Part shown: piece by piece, positions 3,818 to 63,099 of the stretch | Position numbering within the stretch: the first letter of the stretch is position 1 | Layout: the number at the start of each line of letters is the position of its first letter | DNA from: Eledone cirrhosa | Taxonomy: Eukaryota | Reading direction: 5' to 3' | Assembly: GCA_964016885.1 (NCBI GenBank) | Contig: OZ024749.1 | Span: 9,796,001-9,860,000 of the forward strand | DNA length: 64,000 nt | Position numbers and translations under genes: made by a program | The notes under the pieces: generated by a model | Database searches by the model: none | The model's input: the letters and a program-made list of their open reading frames with translations, nothing else | Told to the model about the DNA's origin: nothing

Positions 3818-3884
3818 ATGCCAGCCTCTAAATCAACTGATCCTTGTAAGAAATTCGCTTGCCAAATCCAAACCTGTCTAAAAG
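3818..3884 (+). CDS. CMC4: Cx9C motif-containing protein 4 (p8 MTCP1-like), coding exon 1
   Basis: Acceptor ttaccag|3808; ATG at 3818; MPASKSTDPCKKFACQIQTCLK+G|gtaaaa. The DPC-x4-C-x4-C pattern matches CMC4. Confidence 0.9.
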
Positions 3885-8740: not shown

Positions 8741-8877
8741 AAAATAAATACCAAGAATCCAAATGTAAAGAAGTTATTAATGAAATGTGGAAGTGTTGTG
8801 AAAAATATGGTCCTATATCTAAATGCTGTGATGGATTTAAAAGTAGCTGGAAAGAGGTTTTAACCAATAACCAATAA
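8741..8877 (+). CDS. CMC4: CMC4 coding exon 2
   Basis: Acceptor ttctag|8741; phase 1 joins to give (E)NKYQESKCKEVINEMWKCCEKYGPISKCCDGFKSSWKEVLTNNQ*. Contains the second Cx9C. Spliced protein is 67 aa. Confidence 0.9.
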
Positions 8878-20640: not shown

Positions 20641-21947
20641 CAGGGTGCGGACAATATTTGTTCGCAATTTTCAACTGCTAATTTTATGTAAATTTTTTTT
20701 AATTCCGTCATCACTCTTGTCTTCATAAAAACAGTGACTATAATTCTATTATTTATTTTCAGAATAATTGATTATGAATAATTTTGAACCTCCAAATTTA
20801 TGGAAGAGACACAGACTTCTTCTTGGAATCCGCGGCGGGAGGACAAATATGGAAATTTCAGACTTTCTCAGCATCAGCAGGAGAATGGTGGAAAAAGTCC
20901 GAAAGGAATTGGAAGATTCAGGATTCGACTACGAAGCAACATCAGAGGGGAAAACACATGACTGACGATCTGATGCCTTCAGAACGCCCGAGTTCGTCAC
21001 TGAAGTTCAGGATATCATCAACAATGAACCTAGCAAGTCGATGCATGCCATTCCAAGGGAGAAAGGCGTGGATGAAAAGCTCATTAGGCTGGTGGCACAT
21101 GAAGACATTCGCTACGTTTCATACAAGATGATGAAAGGACAATTTCTGTCAAAGGTGATGCAAGAAAAGTGACTGAAGCACGCAAAGAAGCTGATCAACA
21201 AGTTGAAACACCCACTGGGGCCAGACATGCTGTGGTTTTTCTCCGACGAGAAAAACTTCTGCCAAGACCAGATGATCAACTCCCAGAACAACAGGTGGCT
21301 CGCTGTCTCATCCAAAGATGTGCCCAGAGTCATGCAGACAAAGTTTCCAGCGACAACATTGGTCTTAGGTGTTGTCAGCAGTCAAGGTGATGTCATGCCA
21401 CCTCACTTCTTCCCTGAGGGCCTCAAGCTGAACACCGATGGCTACATCCGCATTCTGAGCGAGGTAGTAAAGCCCTGGATCGACCAGGTAGCTGCAGGTA
21501 GGCCGTACGTTTGGCAGCAAGACTCAGCGCCCTGCCATACCAGCCGAAAGACCCAAGCCTGGCTGTCAGAGAACTTCGTCGACCACACTTCACCTGACAT
21601 CTGGCCTCCCAGCTCGCCTGACTGCAACCCCCTTGACTTCTTTGTGTGGGGCACAGTGGAACGAGACACCAACAGATCTAGCTGCAATACGAAAGACGAT
21701 CTGAAGGCCAGGATCACAAGTGCCTTTAGAGGCCTAAGTCAGGGGACAGTGACGAAGGCCTGTAGCCGGTTCCAAAGCCGCCTTGAGGCCGTCATCAAAG
21801 CCAATGGCGGGTTTATCGAGTGAGATTGAAAGAACAAGTCATGAAGACAAACTGACCCAAGTTTGATAAATATATCTTAAAAAATAAAACTACTGTGTTA
21901 TTTTTTCCTAGACATTAATCTTGCGAACAAATATCGTCCGCACCCTG
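20641..21947 (+). mobile_element. Full-length Tc1/mariner element, DD37D (maT) family
   Basis: 27-bp TIRs CAGGGTGCGGAC(A/G)ATATTTGTTCGCAA, TA on both sides, 1307 bp. Confidence 0.95.
20774..21823 (+). pseudogene. DD37D transposase with two in-frame TGA stops
   Basis: One frame from ATG 20774, with stops at 20963 and 21169. FFSDEK..QQDSAPCH..SPDCNPLD; 37 residues between the 2nd and 3rd Asp. Confidence 0.9.
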
Positions 21948-26541: not shown

Positions 26542-26738
26542 CTTATCCATATGAGACTCCATGTATCGGAATGTGTACTCATCAGCGTCAATGATTTGAA
26601 ACTCATACTCATTCAGCTCCACAATAGCTCCAATCCTAAAGTCACTGGCGCTGTAATATTTCATAGGTTCTATGTTGAATTTCTCCTGGCCAGGTAATTT
26701 AACATGAGTTCGGCTGAGAAATGTATTAATCTTCGTAT
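26542..26738 (-). CDS. EFHC2: EFHC2-like, exon 8 (end of third DM10 domain)
   Basis: ttctag|AT..AAG|gtttgt; (D)TKINTFLSRTHVKLPGQEKF..IIDADEYTFRYMESHMDK; 197 nt, phase 1/0. Confidence 0.9.
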
Positions 26739-29323: not shown

Positions 29324-29462
29324 CAATTCCATATTTTGTTTTGTAGAAATTCTTAGTAAATTCGTCACAGTTACAGAGCTTGAGGGGTCGGCCATACACA
29401 CTGATGATGTCACCGAGTCGTAAATCTTCAGCAGAGTAATAGGGAATATTTACTTCACCTAT
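29324..29462 (-). CDS. EFHC2: EFHC2-like, exon 6
   Basis: ctaaaag|ATA..G|gtatgt; IGEVNIPYYSAEDLRLGDIISVYGRPLKLCNCDEFTKNFYKTKYGI; 139 nt. Confidence 0.88.
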
Positions 29463-29496
29463 CTTTTAGCAGAAAGAAAAAAATATATATATATTT

Positions 29497-32400
29497 TACT
29501 ACAGGTATTGAGTTGATGGTGAGTCCTGTACCACTGTGTGGATTAGGGGGCACTACAGGTAGTGTGTTGGTGGTGAGTCTTGTACCACTGTGTGGTGTAG
29601 GGGGCACTACAGGTGGTGTGTTGGTGGGGAGTCCTGTACAACTGTGAGGAGTAGGGGGCACTACAGGTATTGAGTTGATGGTGAGTCCTGTACCACTGTG
29701 TGGAGTAGGGGGCACTACAGGTATTGAGTTGATGGTGAGTCCTGTACCACTGTGTGGAGTAGGGGGCACTACAGGTAGTGTGTTGGTGGTGAGTCTTGTA
29801 CCACTGTGTGGTGTAGGGGGCACTACAGGTGGTGTGTTGGTGGTGAGTCCTGTACAACTGTGAGGAGTAGGGGGCACTACAGGTATTGAGTTGATGGTGA
29901 GTCCTGTACCACTGTGTGGAGTAGGGGGCACTACAGGTATTGAGTTGATGGTGAGTCCTGTACCACTGTGTGGAGTAGGGGGCACTACAGGTAGTGTGTT
30001 GGTGGTGAGTCTTGTACCACTGTGTGGAGTAGGGGGCACTACAGGTGGTGTGTTGGTGGGGAGTCCTGTACAACTGTGAGGAGTAGGGGGCACTACAGGT
30101 AGTGTGTTGGTGGTGAGTCCTGTACCACTGTGAGGAGTAGGGGGCACTACAGGTAGTGTGTTGATGGTGAGTCCTGTACCACTGTGTGGAGTAGGGGGCA
30201 CTACAGGTAGTGTGGTGATGGTGAGTCCTGTACCACTGTGAGGAGTAGGGGGCACTACAGGTAGTGTGTTGGTGGGGAGTCCTGTACCACTGTGAGGAGT
30301 AGGGGGCACTACAGGTAGTGTGGTGATGGTGAGTCCTGTACCACTGTGTGGAGTAGGGGGCACTACAGGTAGTGTGTTGGTGGGGAGTCCTGTACCACTG
30401 TGTGGAGTAGGGGGCACTACAGGTAGTATGTTGGTGGGGAGTCCTGTACCACTGTGAGGTGTAGGGGGCACTACAGGTAGTGTGGTGATGGTGAGTCCTG
30501 TACCACTGTGAGGAGTAGGGGGCACTACAGGTAGTGTGTTGGTGGGGAGTCCTGTACCACTGTGAGGAGTAGGGGGCACTACAGGTAGTGTGTTGATGGT
30601 GAGTCCTGTACCACTGTGAGGAGTAGGGGGCACTACAGGTAGTGTGGTGATGGTGAGTCCTGTACCACTGTGAGGAGTAGGGGGCACTACAGGTAGTGTG
30701 TTGGTGGGGAGTCCTGTACCACTGTGTGGAGTAGGGGGCACTACAGGTAGTGTGTTGGTGGTGAGTCCTGTACCACTGTGAGGAGTAGGGGGCACTACAG
30801 GTAGTGTGTTGGTGAGGAGTCTTGTACCACTGTGTGGAGTAGGGGGCACTACAGGTAGTGTGTTGATACCACTGTGTGGAGTAGGGGACACTACAGGTAG
30901 TGTGTTGGTGGTGAGTCTTGTACCACTGTGTGGTGTAGGGGGCACTACAGGTAGTGTGTTGGTGGTGAGTCCTGTACCACTGTGTGGAGTAGGGGGCACT
31001 ACAGGTAGTGTGTTGGTGGGGAGTCCTGTACCACTGTGTGGAGTAGGGGGCACTACAGGTAGTGTGGTGATGGTGAGTCCTGTACCACTGTGGAGTAGGG
31101 GGCACTACAGGTAGTGTGTTGGTGGTGAGTCCTGTACCACTGTGAGGAGTAGGGGGCACTACAGGTAGTGTGTTGGTGAGGAGTCTTGTACCACTGTGTG
31201 GAGTAGGGGGCACTACAGGTAGTGTGTTGGTGGGGAGTCCTGTACCACTGTGAGGAGTAGGGGGCACTACAGGTAGTGTGTTGGTGGGGAGTCTTGTACC
31301 ACTGTGTGGAGTAGGGGGCACTACAGGTAGTGTGTTGGTGGTGAGTCCTGTACCACTGTGTGGAGTAGGGGGCACTACAGGTAGTGTGTTGGTGGGGAGT
31401 CTTGTACCACTGTGTGGAGTAGGGGGCACTACAGGTAGTGTGTTGGTGGGGAGTCCTGTACAACTGTGAGGAGTAGGGGGTACTACAGGTAGTGTGTTGG
31501 TGGGGAGTCCTGTACCACTGTGTGGAGTAGGGGGCACTACAGGTGGTGTGTTGGTGGGGAGTCCTGTACCACTGTGTGGAGTAGGGGGCACTACAGGTGG
31601 TGTGTTGGTGGGGAGTCCTGTACAACTGTGAGGAGTAGGGGGCACTACAGGTGGTGTGTTGGTGGGGAGTCCTGTACAACTGTGTGGAGTAGGGGACACT
31701 ACAGGTAGTGTGTTGCTGGTGAGTCCTGTACCACTGTGTGGTGTAGGGGGCACTACAGGTAGTGTGTTGGTGGTGAGTCCTGTACCACTGTGAGGAGTAG
31801 GGGGCACTACAGGTAGTGTGTTGGTGGGGAGTCCTGTACCACTGTGTGGTGTAGGGGGCACTACAGGTAGTGTGTTGGTGGTGAGTCCTGTACCACTGTG
31901 AGGAGTAGGGGGCACTACAGGTAGTGTGTTGATGGTGAGTCCTGTACCACTGTGAGGAGTAGGGGGCACTACAGGTAGTGTGTTGATGGTGAGTCCTGTA
32001 CCACTGTGTGGAGTAGGGGGCACTACAGGTAGTGTGTTGGTTGGGAGTCCTGTACCACTGTGTGGAGTAGGGGACACTACAGGTAGTGTGTTGGTGGGGA
32101 GTCCTGTACCACTGTGTGGAGTAGGGGGTACTACAGGTGGTGTGTTGGTGGGGAGTCCTGTACAACTGTGTGGAGTAGGGGACACTACAGGTAGTGTGTT
32201 GCTGGTGAGTCCTGTACCACTGTGTGGAGTAGGGGGCACTACAGGTAGTGTGTTGGTGGTGAGTCCTGTACCACTGTGGGGAGTAGGGGGCACTACAGGT
32301 AGTGTGTTGATGGGGAGTCCTGTACCACTGTGAGGAGTAGGGGGCACTACAGGTAGTGTGTTGGTGGTGAGTCCTGTACCACTGTGTGGTGTAGGGGGCA

Positions 32401-32996
32401 CTACAGGTAGTGTGTTGGTGGTGAGTCCTGTACCACTGTGAGGAGTAGGGGGCACTACAGGTAGTGTGTTGGTGGGGAGTCCTGTACCGCTGTGAGGAGT
32501 AGGGGGCACTACAGGTAGTGTGTTGGTGGGGAGTCCTGTACCACTGTGAGGAGTAGGGGGCACTACAGGTAGTGTGGTGATGGTGAGTCCTGTACCACTG
32601 TGAGGAGTAGGGGGCACTACAGGTAGTGTGTTGATGGTGAGTCCTGTACCACTGTGTGGAGTAGGGGGCACTACAGGTAGTGTGTTGGTTGGGAGTCCTG
32701 TACCACTGTGTGGAGTAGGGGACACTACAGGTAGTGTGTTGGTGGGGAGTCCTGTACCACTGTGTGGAGTAGGGGGTACTACAGGTGGTGTGTTGGTGGG
32801 GAGTCCTGTACAACTGTGTGGAGTAGGGGACACTACAGGTAGTGTGTTGCTGGTGAGTCCTGTACCACTGTGTGGAGTAGGGGGCACTACAGGTAGTGTG
32901 TTGGTGGTGAGTCCTGTACCACTGTGGGGAGTAGGGGGCACTACAGGTAGTGTGTTGATGGGGAGTCCTGTACCACTGTGTGGAGTAGGGGGCACT
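29497..32996. repeat. Minisatellite, 54-bp unit, about 65 copies
   Basis: GGGGCACTACAGGTAGTGTGTTGGTGGTGAGTCCTGTACCACTGTGTGGAGTAG; intronic. Confidence 0.95.
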
Positions 32997-33261
32997 GAAG
33001 TCCCCTTGAAACTGCCCTTCATTCCATGATAGAAAACCTTCAGGTTCCAAACACCAGCTTCATAATGAGAAAGTAAAATATTTTACTAAATCCCTCCAAA
33101 TTTTTTATTATTTTTCAAAATGATTTGAAAATTTTAGGCAGTTTCTTTCATTAGAAATACACTAAATTTGTTGCTTATTTTAAAGTGTTTATATTTGTCT
33201 AAAATCTTTCATCATAACTTTATGTAAGCAGCTTTGTTAAGTTAAGCCCCAAACATCAGAT

Positions 33262-33457
33262 TGATAATTGTTTCTACTATTGGCACAAGGCCAGCAATTA
33301 TGTCAGTACATTACTGGTACTTTATTTTATCGACCCCGTAAGGATGAAAGGCAAAGTTAAGCTCGGCGGGATTTGAACTCAGAATGGCAAGGGCCGTAAC
33401 TCTATGCGTCAAAGAATTGCGTCCGACCCTCTACCGATACTGCCAATTCACCGCCCT
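33262..33457 (-). mobile_element. Short tRNA-derived SINE (~190-bp family)
   Basis: Reverse complement of 11085-11280. Further copies near 24720-24860, 26925-27142, 37017-37199, 56672-56780 and 63791-63985. Confidence 0.8.
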
Positions 33458-34192
33458 CAGATTGATAATGGTTTCTAATTTAGGTTGAAGGCCAACAATT
33501 TCGGGAGTGTTGTGGGGAGAGGAAAATCGATTTTGCCAACCCCACTATTTTGCTGGATGTTTGTGGCCTAGTGGTAAGGGTGTTGGACTTACAATCATAA
33601 TGTTGTGGGTTTGAATCCTGGGCCGTGTTGTGTTCTTGAGCAAAAAATACTTCATTTCACATTGCTCCCAAATACCTAGCTGAAAATGAGTACCAGCAAT
33701 AACTGGGGGTTAAACCCTGTGATGGACTGCAGTCCTGTCCAGAGGGGAAGTCTTGTACTCTCAGTCACTTTATGCCACAGAAACTCTGATAAACACTGGC
33801 ATAGTGAGCCTCCAAGCTTCAGACAGACTACTTTGCTGCTACTTTATTTTATCGACCCCGGAAAGATGGAGGGGGAAGTTTGACCTGAGCGGAATTTAAA
33901 ACCAGAATGTTGAGAGAGGGCCTTGGATAGCAACCGTGAGCTTGGCTGGTCTCACTTGGAGATCCAGCTGGATCAAATGGAAACAGTTGCTTCTGACAGG
34001 AGCTGTTAGGTATGCTTGAGGACTTTAACCCTCTGACCCTCTCAGGAATAAGTGGGTGACGGAGGAGGAGGGGGAGTGAGGAGGAGGAACAGGAGAAAGG
34101 GGAGGTGTGTTGAACAACTGACACACTGAACATCAAAACAGAAATCTATTCCATTCTATTTTCTACTACTTCTTTCCATCAATATTGTCCAG

Positions 34193-34389
34193 GTTTTATT
34201 GGTGGAAAGTTCTTGGAACGGAGTCGTGTGAAGAAACCTGATGAAGAGAAATTCACTGTTGAACCATCGAAATATTATTTAGCTGAAGACTTATATGTCG
34301 GTAATATTGTCCAGTTTGTAAAGCATCAGTTTATTATAACTGATATAGATGAATATGCTGTGAACTACATGGAAACAAGGCCAGAGCAG
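34193..34389 (+). CDS. Isolated intact exon of a second EFHC2 paralog, antisense within intron 5
   Basis: Pyrimidine tract and gtccag|GT..CAG|gtaagt; (G)FIGGKFLERSRVKKPDEEKF..ITDIDEYAVNYMETRPEQ; 197 nt, phase 1/0, same geometry as exon 8. Whether it is expressed is unknown. Confidence 0.7.
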
Positions 34390-35148
34390 GTAAGTTGCTG
34401 GCTTTTACTGACCTTAACATATTCTTCATCATATTTCTAATAACTTGGACTATTCTTATCAAATAATTCTGAAAATATTCAGCAATTTGGAAATATTTAG
34501 TAATATAACTAACTTTCTCATTATTAAACTAGTGTTTGGAACATAACTTAACAAAGGTTTCTACATAAGATTAAGAGATCACAGCGCTGATTCTATGGGC
34601 ATATGGTTAGAATGCCTCAGGAAAGAATCTCTGGACAGATTTTACAAGCAAAACCAACAGGTAGGAGACCCAGAGCAAGATGGTTGGATAACAGCCATGA
34701 GCTTGGCTGGTCACACTTGGAGAGAGTTGCTTCTGACAGGACCTGCTGGAAGAAGTGTTTGACGACACCATAAATATAAATACTTTAACCCTTTCATCAC
34801 CATATTTCTAATAACAAACTGTCTGTGATTTACAAATAATTTTGGAAATATTCAGTAATTTGGAGGAATTTTCGTAATGTAGCTAACTTTCTCATTATCG
34901 GACTGGAGATTGGAGAATAACTTAATAAAGGTTCTTGCATAAAATTATGATGGAAGATTTTTTGATACAGATAAATGATTTAAAACAAAGTTTTGTATCA
35001 TGGAAGTTTTGGTATAAATATGTTAAATAATGTCTGAAAAAAAAAAAGGTGTACAAGTTGGAATGTCTTTAACCCCAGATCTGCTGTAACAGAGCCCACC
35101 TGGAGTTAAACAACATAAAGTAGTGTGTATGTTTAAAAGAGTTGTTAC

Positions 35149-35253
35149 CTGTAACCCATCATAAATAAATCGGTTGTCTTTATGAACAGAACCAAATACA
35201 TTCAGCATAGTTCGGTCACATATCTTTCCTGGAAAGTTCACATAATGTTCTCC
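35149..35253 (-). CDS. EFHC2: EFHC2-like, exon 5
   Basis: ttacag|GGA..CAG|gtaaca; GEHYVNFPGKICDRTMLNVFGSVHKDNRFIYDGLQ; 105 nt. Confidence 0.85.
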
Positions 35254-35299
35254 CTGTAAAACATTTTAAAATCATTAATTAATAATTGTATCACTTACT

Positions 35300-35660
35300 C
35301 TAAGTCTCACCTCATCTAAACATTTCTCACCTACTAAGATTACCTACCCTTCCTACCCATCATCATTTCCTACCCAGTAAAGTTTGTATTTCTCTTGTTT
35401 CTATTGCCTGTCAGTAATCTTGCTAAGGCACCCCTCCATTTCACCTCATGTACACACTGTACACCTACTTCTCTTCTCTCTAACAGTTCCACAATTTCAC
35501 CTGATTTACCTTTCAGGTTACCAACTTTGAGGGTGGTAATTCTGAGATTTCTACCATGACAGTTTGTTGTTACTTTCTTGGGTAGAGGTTCTAAGTACCT
35601 GAAAGGGAAAGTGGTTGTTCGATTGCTTGATGACAGTTGAGGGCTTCTTGCACATCTAGC
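35300..35660 (-). mobile_element. RTE AP-endonuclease N-terminal fragment
   Basis: LRITTLKVGNLKGKSGEIVELLERREVGVQCVHEVKWRG. Confidence 0.65.
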
Positions 35661-36073
35661 CACCCCACTAATCTAGCCACCCCACCACTCTAGCCACCCC
35701 ACTAATCTAGCTACCCCCACTAACATGTGCAGCACTAACATGGCTAGTGTTAGCCCTATGTACACAATTAGTGAGAATCATATTGGTCGTGCTTTTCATA
35801 TCTTGGCTCAGTTTTTATGCCCTTCCTATCACCAACCACTTTACAGCGTGTACATATGTATGTGTGTGTATGTGTGTGTTTGCATATAAATGCATGTATA
35901 CACACACACACATATATACATATATCATCATCATCATCGTTTAACATCTATCTTCCACTCTAGCATGAGTTAGATGGGTTTGTCCCATTTAGAGGCAAGC
36001 TGTGTCGGTGACCCTGTCTCGTTCATATAGGACTGTTTCTTGCTGGTTTTCTATGGCTGGATGCCCTTCTTAG

Positions 36074-36252
36074 TGCGCAACGCAACGCAGCGCAACACAA
36101 CACAACACAAAACCACAAAACAAAACAACACAACACAAAACAACACAACAAAACAACACAACACAAAACAAAACAACACAACACAAAACAACAAAACAAC
36201 AAAACAAAACAACACAACAAAACGCAACGCAACGCAACGCAACAACAAAACA
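36074..36252. repeat. Degenerate pentanucleotide repeat (CAAAA/CAACA/CAACG)
   Basis: Directly visible; starts ~25 nt into intron 4. Confidence 0.9.
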
Positions 36253-36275
36253 ATCCAATCCAAGAATTTGGAGAC

Positions 36276-36527
36276 CTTTGGTATTTTTGATCTTCGTACC
36301 AAGACAGATCCCATTTCTTGGCCACAATTTGGAGGAAACACCTCCCGAACTTCCATTGTGTCGTCAGATAAGAAGTAGAAGAGGATACATTTATGGACAA
36401 TACCACTTTCACTTGGAGTGTCATCCCAGGTACAGTAGAAACGTAGGACGTGCATGTCGTGTTCCAGAAACTTCTTCAGGGTGTCGATCCTCTTGTAGGG
36501 TCTCAATGGCATTTGGGCCTCATCTAT
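36276..36527 (-). CDS. EFHC2: EFHC2-like, exon 4 (second DM10 domain)
   Basis: gtacag|ATA; IDEAQMPLRPYKRIDTLKKFLEHDMHVLRFYCTWDD..YFLSDDTMEVRE..RRSKIPK|gtctcc (weak donor); 252 nt. Confidence 0.88.
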
Positions 36528-62645: not shown

Positions 62646-62827
62646 GATAACTTGACTGCTAACACACCTGTAATATGACAACTTCACTGTAACTAGCAGG
62701 AAAATGGCCTTAAAATGCTAGTTGTTGTTGTTATTGTTGTTGTATCTCCTGAAGCATGAATTTAAAAGGCCGTGTTCAGAAAAAGCCTGACAATGAGAAA
62801 CGATATAGGAGGCAATGAAAGACTCAC

Positions 62828-63040
62828 CTTCTGTGAAGTTCATCACTTCCTCTGAGAAATCCTTTTCTTTGTAGTTAAAACCAGCTGAAGCTCCCAGTTC
62901 TAGGGCCAACTTAATCTTGTCTTCAGACCCAGCTGTCACAATTGCCTTGCCCTTAGCCAGTGTCACCAACTGGATGGCTGCTGTTCCAACACCACTTGCT
63001 CCAGCATGGATCAGGACAGTGTCTTCAGGCTGCAGTTTAC
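62828..63040 (-). CDS. TP53I3: PIG3-like internal exon (NADP-binding region); upstream exons lie beyond the window
   Basis: gtaag|GT..G|gtgagt; (G)KLQPEDTVLIHAGASGVGTAAIQLV..VTAGSEDK..AGFNYKEKDFSEEVMNFTE; 213 nt. Confidence 0.92.
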
Positions 63041-63099
63041 CTTACAATACATATAAATCAATACCAATCAATACCAATCAACACATATATACATACATA

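Follow-up and report, generated by a model that had tools for sequence, protein, structure and literature searches.

An EFHC2 exon that lies intact and antisense inside an EFHC2-like gene is very probably an unused passenger of a young chimeric inverted duplication, which would have been produced by recent DNA-repair copying. The exon was located on the plus strand of the window, the 64-kb stretch of DNA that was analysed (G000:C9:9796001-9860000 in a 3.0-Gb assembly). The duplicate is reciprocal: two neighbouring EFHC2 paralogs, called A and B below, each hold in one intron a backward copy of an exon of the other. EFHC2 is a ciliary microtubule inner protein with three DM10 domains. The coordinates of the features are collected in Table 1.

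Table 1. Features of the two EFHC2 paralogs and of the duplicate; positions are those of the window unless they begin with C9.
Feature	Position	Strand	Description
Antisense exon	34193-34389	+	Copy of exon 8 of paralog A; encodes the latter half of DM10 domain 3
Host gene B exon 8	26542-26738	-	Old paralogous counterpart of the antisense exon (104/197 nt, 28/66 aa)
Host gene B, EFHC2-like	17404-45307	-	11 exons, 761 aa, 0 internal stops; hand-built model
B exons 1-6	45307-45266, 41007-40668, 39917-39694, 36527-36276, 35253-35149, 29462-29324	-	
B exons 7-11	27530-27222, 26738-26542, 22608-22274, 20167-20075, 17653-17404	-	
B exon 5, working copy	35149-35253	-	105 nt, phase 0/0
Paralog A, EFHC2	C9:9791198-9729448	-	11 exons, 739 aa; hand-built from splice sites
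Shared unit S	34065-36292		Inverted twin S' at C9:9765277-9767501, in paralog A introns 7-8
A-derived half of S	34065-34775	+	A exon 8 flanked by the end of intron 7 and the start of intron 8; right end is the candidate position
B-derived half of S	34776-36292	-	B intron 5 (part), exon 5, intron 4 and the final 16-17 nt of exon 4
Left junction	34030-34095	+	GAG-rich 3' tail of a repeat runs, over about 30 bases, into a GAG-rich stretch of A intron 7
CMC4 (PF08991)	~3818-3884, 8741-8877	+	Two exons, phase-1 intron

The antisense exon was 197 nt long and was flanked by a pyrimidine-rich acceptor closed by TCCAG and by a GTAAGT donor. Its reading frame (GFIGGKFLERSRVKKP...RPEQ) was open, with no stops, and its product matched the second half of the Pfam DM10 domain (PF06565) with an E value of 3.8e-12. 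The best named protein match over the exon was the EFHC2 of Octopus bimaculoides (71% identity), and the match to EFHC2 was far beyond chance. An earlier description of this locus (the sequence-only reading) had compared the exon with exon 8 of the host gene and had reported the same length, the same phases, 28 shared residues of 66 and neither a stop nor an indel. This comparison was reproduced in full: both exons had 197 nt and were entered in phase 1 and left in phase 0, the residue count was the same, 104 of the 197 nucleotides were shared, and the frame was open. The antisense exon had been said to keep GGxFLxRSRVKKP and to be closer to vertebrate EFHC2 than the host exon. The GGKFL motif was present in the gar and sea-anemone rows of the EFHC2 alignment and was absent (lost) from host gene B. 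Host intron 5 (29463-35148) was indeed of phase 0, and the antisense exon could therefore not join in frame even if it were re-inverted.

Both paralogs were on the minus strand in tandem; each had 11 exons and was free of internal stops, and their phases were identical. The start of paralog A was 4.8 kb to the left of the window, out of view of the sequence-only reading. A and B were 47% identical to each other; the identity to O. bimaculoides EFHC2 was 72% for A and 45% for B, and B was 54% identical to an EFHC2-like protein of Argonauta hians (GAB1605511.1). The closest named matches of both paralogs were EFHC2 or EFHC2-like. A quick tree of 33 rows picked by hand grouped A with the EFHC2 of O. 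bimaculoides, and B with the Argonauta hians protein GAB1605511.1 (SH-aLRT 100 each); the order of the A, B and cuttlefish-type branches was unresolved in this tree. According to these two pairings, the tandem pair is old. The protein sequences thus indicate that octopods carry an old tandem EFHC2 duplication, the B type of which also occurs in Argonauta. Among the best 120 of the 258 matches to B exon 7, no close ortholog of B was listed, and a search for longer proteins with B exon 9 yielded 62 candidates, all of which were rejected. Three DM10 domains were found in B, each spread over several exons. DM10 was detected in six of the eight pieces that were scanned singly, five of these six being B exons, and exons 9 and 11 of B, scanned singly against Pfam, gave no EF-hand matches.

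Several minor features were observed in and around the two genes. The donor of B exon 4 was weak (GTCTCC at 36270-36275), and the frame of this exon continued into the simple repeat of the intron as far as 36054; the joint of exons 4 and 5 agreed with the Argonauta protein (IPK/GEHY versus LPK/GEKY). Intron 9 of B contained a 1.3-kb element (20641-21947) that was 95% identical to C9:9703320-9704626, and within this element a DDE_3 transposase-like frame (21173-21820) was matched at E 2e-4, below the Pfam cut-off. Large minisatellite arrays were located at 29458-33059 in B intron 5, and at C9:9685995-9701962 and C9:9777952-9789240, in the region left of A and in A intron 1, respectively. CMC4 started about 8.6 kb from the start codon of paralog A, with which it was head to head, and was tail to tail with B. 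An exon of the zinc-binding dehydrogenase family (ADH_zinc_N, E 2.3e-11), which had earlier been labelled PIG3, was found at 62721-63041 on the minus strand.

The counterpart of the antisense exon was exon 8 of paralog A (C9:9767370-9767174), to which it was identical at 196 of 197 nucleotides; the sole difference, at 34299, was synonymous. The splice sites were also those of A exon 8, apart from a gap of 4 nt within the pyrimidine tract. A search of the same genome with the peptide gave four matches, namely the antisense exon itself, C9:9767171-9767371 on the minus strand (100%), host exon 8 and a locus on C7 (40%). The identity spanned exon and intron alike across 2.2 kb and then ended abruptly. 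The shared unit (S) and its twin (S') were inverted relative to each other, were 62.6 kb apart and were aligned by blastn over 2,231 columns with 98.4% identity. The core of the unit (34096-36071, 1,976 bp) contained 15 substitutions and 3 indels, with a divergence of 0.76%. In a genome-wide search with two parts of S, only S and S' were near-identical; the other 50-odd matches per part were repeats. As a local baseline, 10 non-tandem matches of at least 400 bp at 90% identity or more were found in the 264 kb around the locus, and S was the longest and most alike of them. The sequence-only reading had counted the recent copying of a fragment from a paralog locus, or a misassembly, among its explanations, and had taken a near-identical flanked copy inside a complete paralog as one sign of a dead duplicate. 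Such a copy was found in paralog A, which bears out the copying, and the roughly twofold contig depth described below speaks against the misassembly.

S also contained the working exon 5 of B, and intron 8 of A therefore carried B exon 5 in antisense, a reciprocity that the sequence-only reading had missed. This second copy (C9:9766311-9766415, plus strand) was identical at 105 of 105 positions and came with its splice sites. The chimeric unit was composed of intron 7, exon 8 and intron 8 of A, joined head-on to intron 5, exon 5 and intron 4 of B. Each gene contained one such unit, and the two were oppositely oriented. The working part of the unit was the exon 8 half in A and the exon 5 half in B; the B-derived half was native in the window and a passenger within A intron 8. 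The order along the chromosome was A11 A10 A9 [B5 copy +, A8] A7...A1, B11...B6 [A8 copy +, B5] B4...B1. All 22 exons of A and B (22/22) were colinear on the minus strand, and this order gave no sign of an inversion of the block between the duplicates.

The GAG-rich 3' tail at the left junction was supplied by a dispersed repeat (33923-34067). At the right junction, the identity ended at 36292, in the middle of B exon 4, and a SINE-like element began at this point at the A locus. Copies of a tRNA-like SINE, a label that reflects a reading of A/B-box-like motifs, adjoined both ends of S'. The inner junction between the A and B parts was bracketed to 34464-34937 by contigs of a related species (run X4), which tracked the A side as far as 34463 and resumed on the B side at 34938, with both ends inside repeats. 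A repeat copy at 34570-34775 was without its 3' end, which was kept in 9 of the 9 other copies that were aligned through 34765/34766. This truncated copy suggests a position near 34775 as the best candidate for the inner junction. The X4 letters were those of the A-locus copy at 34168, 35076 and 35089 and those of the window copy at 35072, and this split between the copies gave no clean polarity. At least 13 substitutions were listed for X4 in exon 8; among those listed, seven were synonymous and six were not, each scored singly. A repeat-mediated crossover was considered as the origin of the duplicate and was rejected: SINE copies are common here, and no matching split element was found.

A somewhat probable route to this arrangement is an exchange between the two neighbouring paralogs by template switching or by ectopic repair of a break. 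In the first step, one half of the unit would have been inserted in inverted orientation into the other gene. A second repair, at the same time or later, would have copied across the new junction back to the first gene, with rejoining at the GAG-rich microhomology of 34065-34095. In the minus-strand pre-mRNA, the backward half would be plain intron and would be spliced out, so that both proteins would be unaffected. Starting from a plain tandem pair, three new joins, one of them occurring twice, are needed to reach the present order, and template switching, whether stepwise or in a single pass, would give this order with both genes intact throughout.

Two successive inversions are a rather unlikely source of the same order, which they would nevertheless give exactly: the first would join A intron 8 to B intron 5, and a staggered second one would restore the middle and duplicate the junction. 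This route fits both the inner junction common to the two loci and the presence of inverted 2.2-kb copies on either end of the 62.6-kb block, and staggered-break inversions leave inverted duplications at breakpoints, according to Ranz et al. (PMC1885836). The two halves of S differed by 3/680 and 12/1,296 substitutions (p 0.29), and this difference was not significant, which is compatible with the inversions and does not separate the two routes. Against the inversions, the intermediate chromosome would have been without either full-length paralog, and a second break would have been required in the same two introns. Moreover, no remnant of the first left junction was recognised: the 600 bases beside the left copy did not contain the 3' end that the truncated repeat lacks.

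The layout of the locus was compared with two described patterns. At the breakpoints treated in PMC1885836, non-repetitive sequence including gene pieces is inverted and duplicated at both ends of the block, as at the EFHC2 locus. In those cases the own flank of each break is duplicated and the middle is inverted, whereas at the EFHC2 locus one chimeric junction occurs twice and the middle keeps its genes whole. Reciprocal duplications or templated insertions (rDup), which are attributed to template switching after fork restart in PMC10482687, are similar in that two loci come to share both short segments. In the cis form (ABEBC), the donor locus is untouched, whereas both loci are altered here. 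The trans form (ABEF + DEBC) has two different junctions and a large rearrangement, whereas the EFHC2 locus has the same inner junction twice and no net inversion. Furthermore, rDup is presented there as a tumour event, and the EFHC2 duplicate is part of an animal reference assembly. Neither exon 8 nor exon 5 had a tandem copy at the EFHC2 locus. The junction layout matches neither pattern exactly, but it works like them. The titles and abstract openings covered by the literature search held no description of the duplicate locus, and a search for EFHC2 with octopus in the full text of papers open without subscription was empty.

A 62.6-kb block between inverted repeats that are about 98.4-99% identical is a structural-variant risk. 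In human recurrent inversions between inverted repeats, repeats of 1.6-24 kb and inversions of 5.1-226 kb are given in PMC3961182, and the repeat (2.2 kb) and the block of the EFHC2 locus are within these ranges. It is improbable, although of some consequence if true, that S and S' act as a double-duty cassette and live hinge, in which each paralog depends on one copy and a crossover flips the block. After a flip, A would stand on the plus strand with exons 1-8, all three DM10 domains and no C-terminal part, and the antisense exon would serve as its working exon 8. B would be cut after exon 5, so both EFHC2 paralogs would be truncated. If flipped chromosomes segregate or arise somatically, the locus would be an inversion switch that alters two ciliary genes together. 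Unlike in the human cases, no flipped haplotype was seen at the EFHC2 locus, and a flip would cut two genes.

A divergence of about 1% is within the range of allelic difference. S and S' differ by about this much, as two alleles might, and none of the longest contigs listed bridged the left junction (34065-34095), so that the duplicate could be read as an assembly artefact, with either two alleles or a chimeric path through the reads entered twice. This was examined in runs X1 and X2, which came from one sample, maybe the source of the assembly. The contig depth, which is to be read with caution and not as copy number, was 13.4-20.7 in six X1 pieces within S versus 7 on one flank, and 11.9-13 in two X2 pieces within S versus 5.4 and 7.3 on the flanks. 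The X1 and X2 contigs mixed letters from both copies, and X1 contigs were broken at the copy-distinguishing sites 35362 and 35644. One X1 contig departed from the window sequence at 34078 and continued for 70 letters more, as a second locus would predict. Furthermore, the 264 kb around the locus contained no N, and A and B each need their own copy to be complete. The roughly twofold depth within S, together with the letters of both copies in one sample, argues against misassembly, and an artefact is very unlikely; a small residue of doubt is left because the left junction was unbridged and depth does not equal copy number. In a different sample, sequenced as RAD run X5, the depth over 34142-34459 was 0, which says nothing on the fixation of the duplicate.

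The intact look of the antisense exon was evaluated against simulated copies that evolved without selection at a divergence of 0.76%. The frame and the AG/GT sites were kept in 66% of these copies when all divergence was placed on the copy and in 81% when half of it was, and the exact peptide was kept in 21-46% of the neutral simulations. The number of substitutions was 1/302 in the two exons versus 14/1,674 in the introns (Fisher p 0.72, not significantly rarer in the exons, in a comparison of low power). Since neutral copies of this divergence mostly stay intact, the intactness of the exon needs no selection, and the copy likely looks intact from youth or gene conversion instead. That the exon is unused is likely from the anatomy of the locus, and the strong acceptor and donor that it has retained are a counterpoint.

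The intact frame and splice sites would also be expected if the exon were used, through trans-splicing or in a plus-strand transcript such as a read-through from CMC4, whose exon 1 donor near 3884 is of phase 1, a one-in-three coincidence. Such use is highly improbable on the present sequences: the youth of the copy alone predicts its intactness, no plus-strand EFHC2 exon was found downstream, the identical peptide is already encoded by paralog A in the normal place, and the end of CMC4 is about 25 kb upstream of the antisense exon. As an unused passenger, the exon would be of little importance for function, being part of a young duplication scar. It would cleanly illustrate how the repair of breaks between tandem paralogs can plant intact-looking antisense exons in introns and mislead gene finding.

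The search for partner exons gave the same picture on the plus strand. The window held no other plus-strand EFHC2 exon, as the sequence-only reading had maintained, and in the 264 kb around the locus the plus-strand matches to A or B were limited to the antisense exon and the copy of B exon 5, which lies outside the window. The genome-wide searches give lower bounds, and a near-identical partner exon would rank highest in them. Exons 7 and 9 of A, used as queries, returned two matches each, all of them minus-strand exons of A and B. The sequence-only reading had proposed two EFHC2 paralogs interleaved on opposite strands with giant introns. A third EFHC2 paralog arranged in this way on the plus strand, favoured only by the intact look of the antisense exon, has a practically negligible probability, since the exon 7 and exon 9 queries found A and B only and the whole-protein search, with at least 18 matches, offered no further plus-strand exon of it. 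These matches comprised 14 on the minus strand of C9, the antisense exon and three in a distant DM10 gene on C7. This third, more distant gene (C7:43038145-43056798, plus strand) was 36-41% identical to O. bimaculoides EFHC2 and is probably EFHC1.
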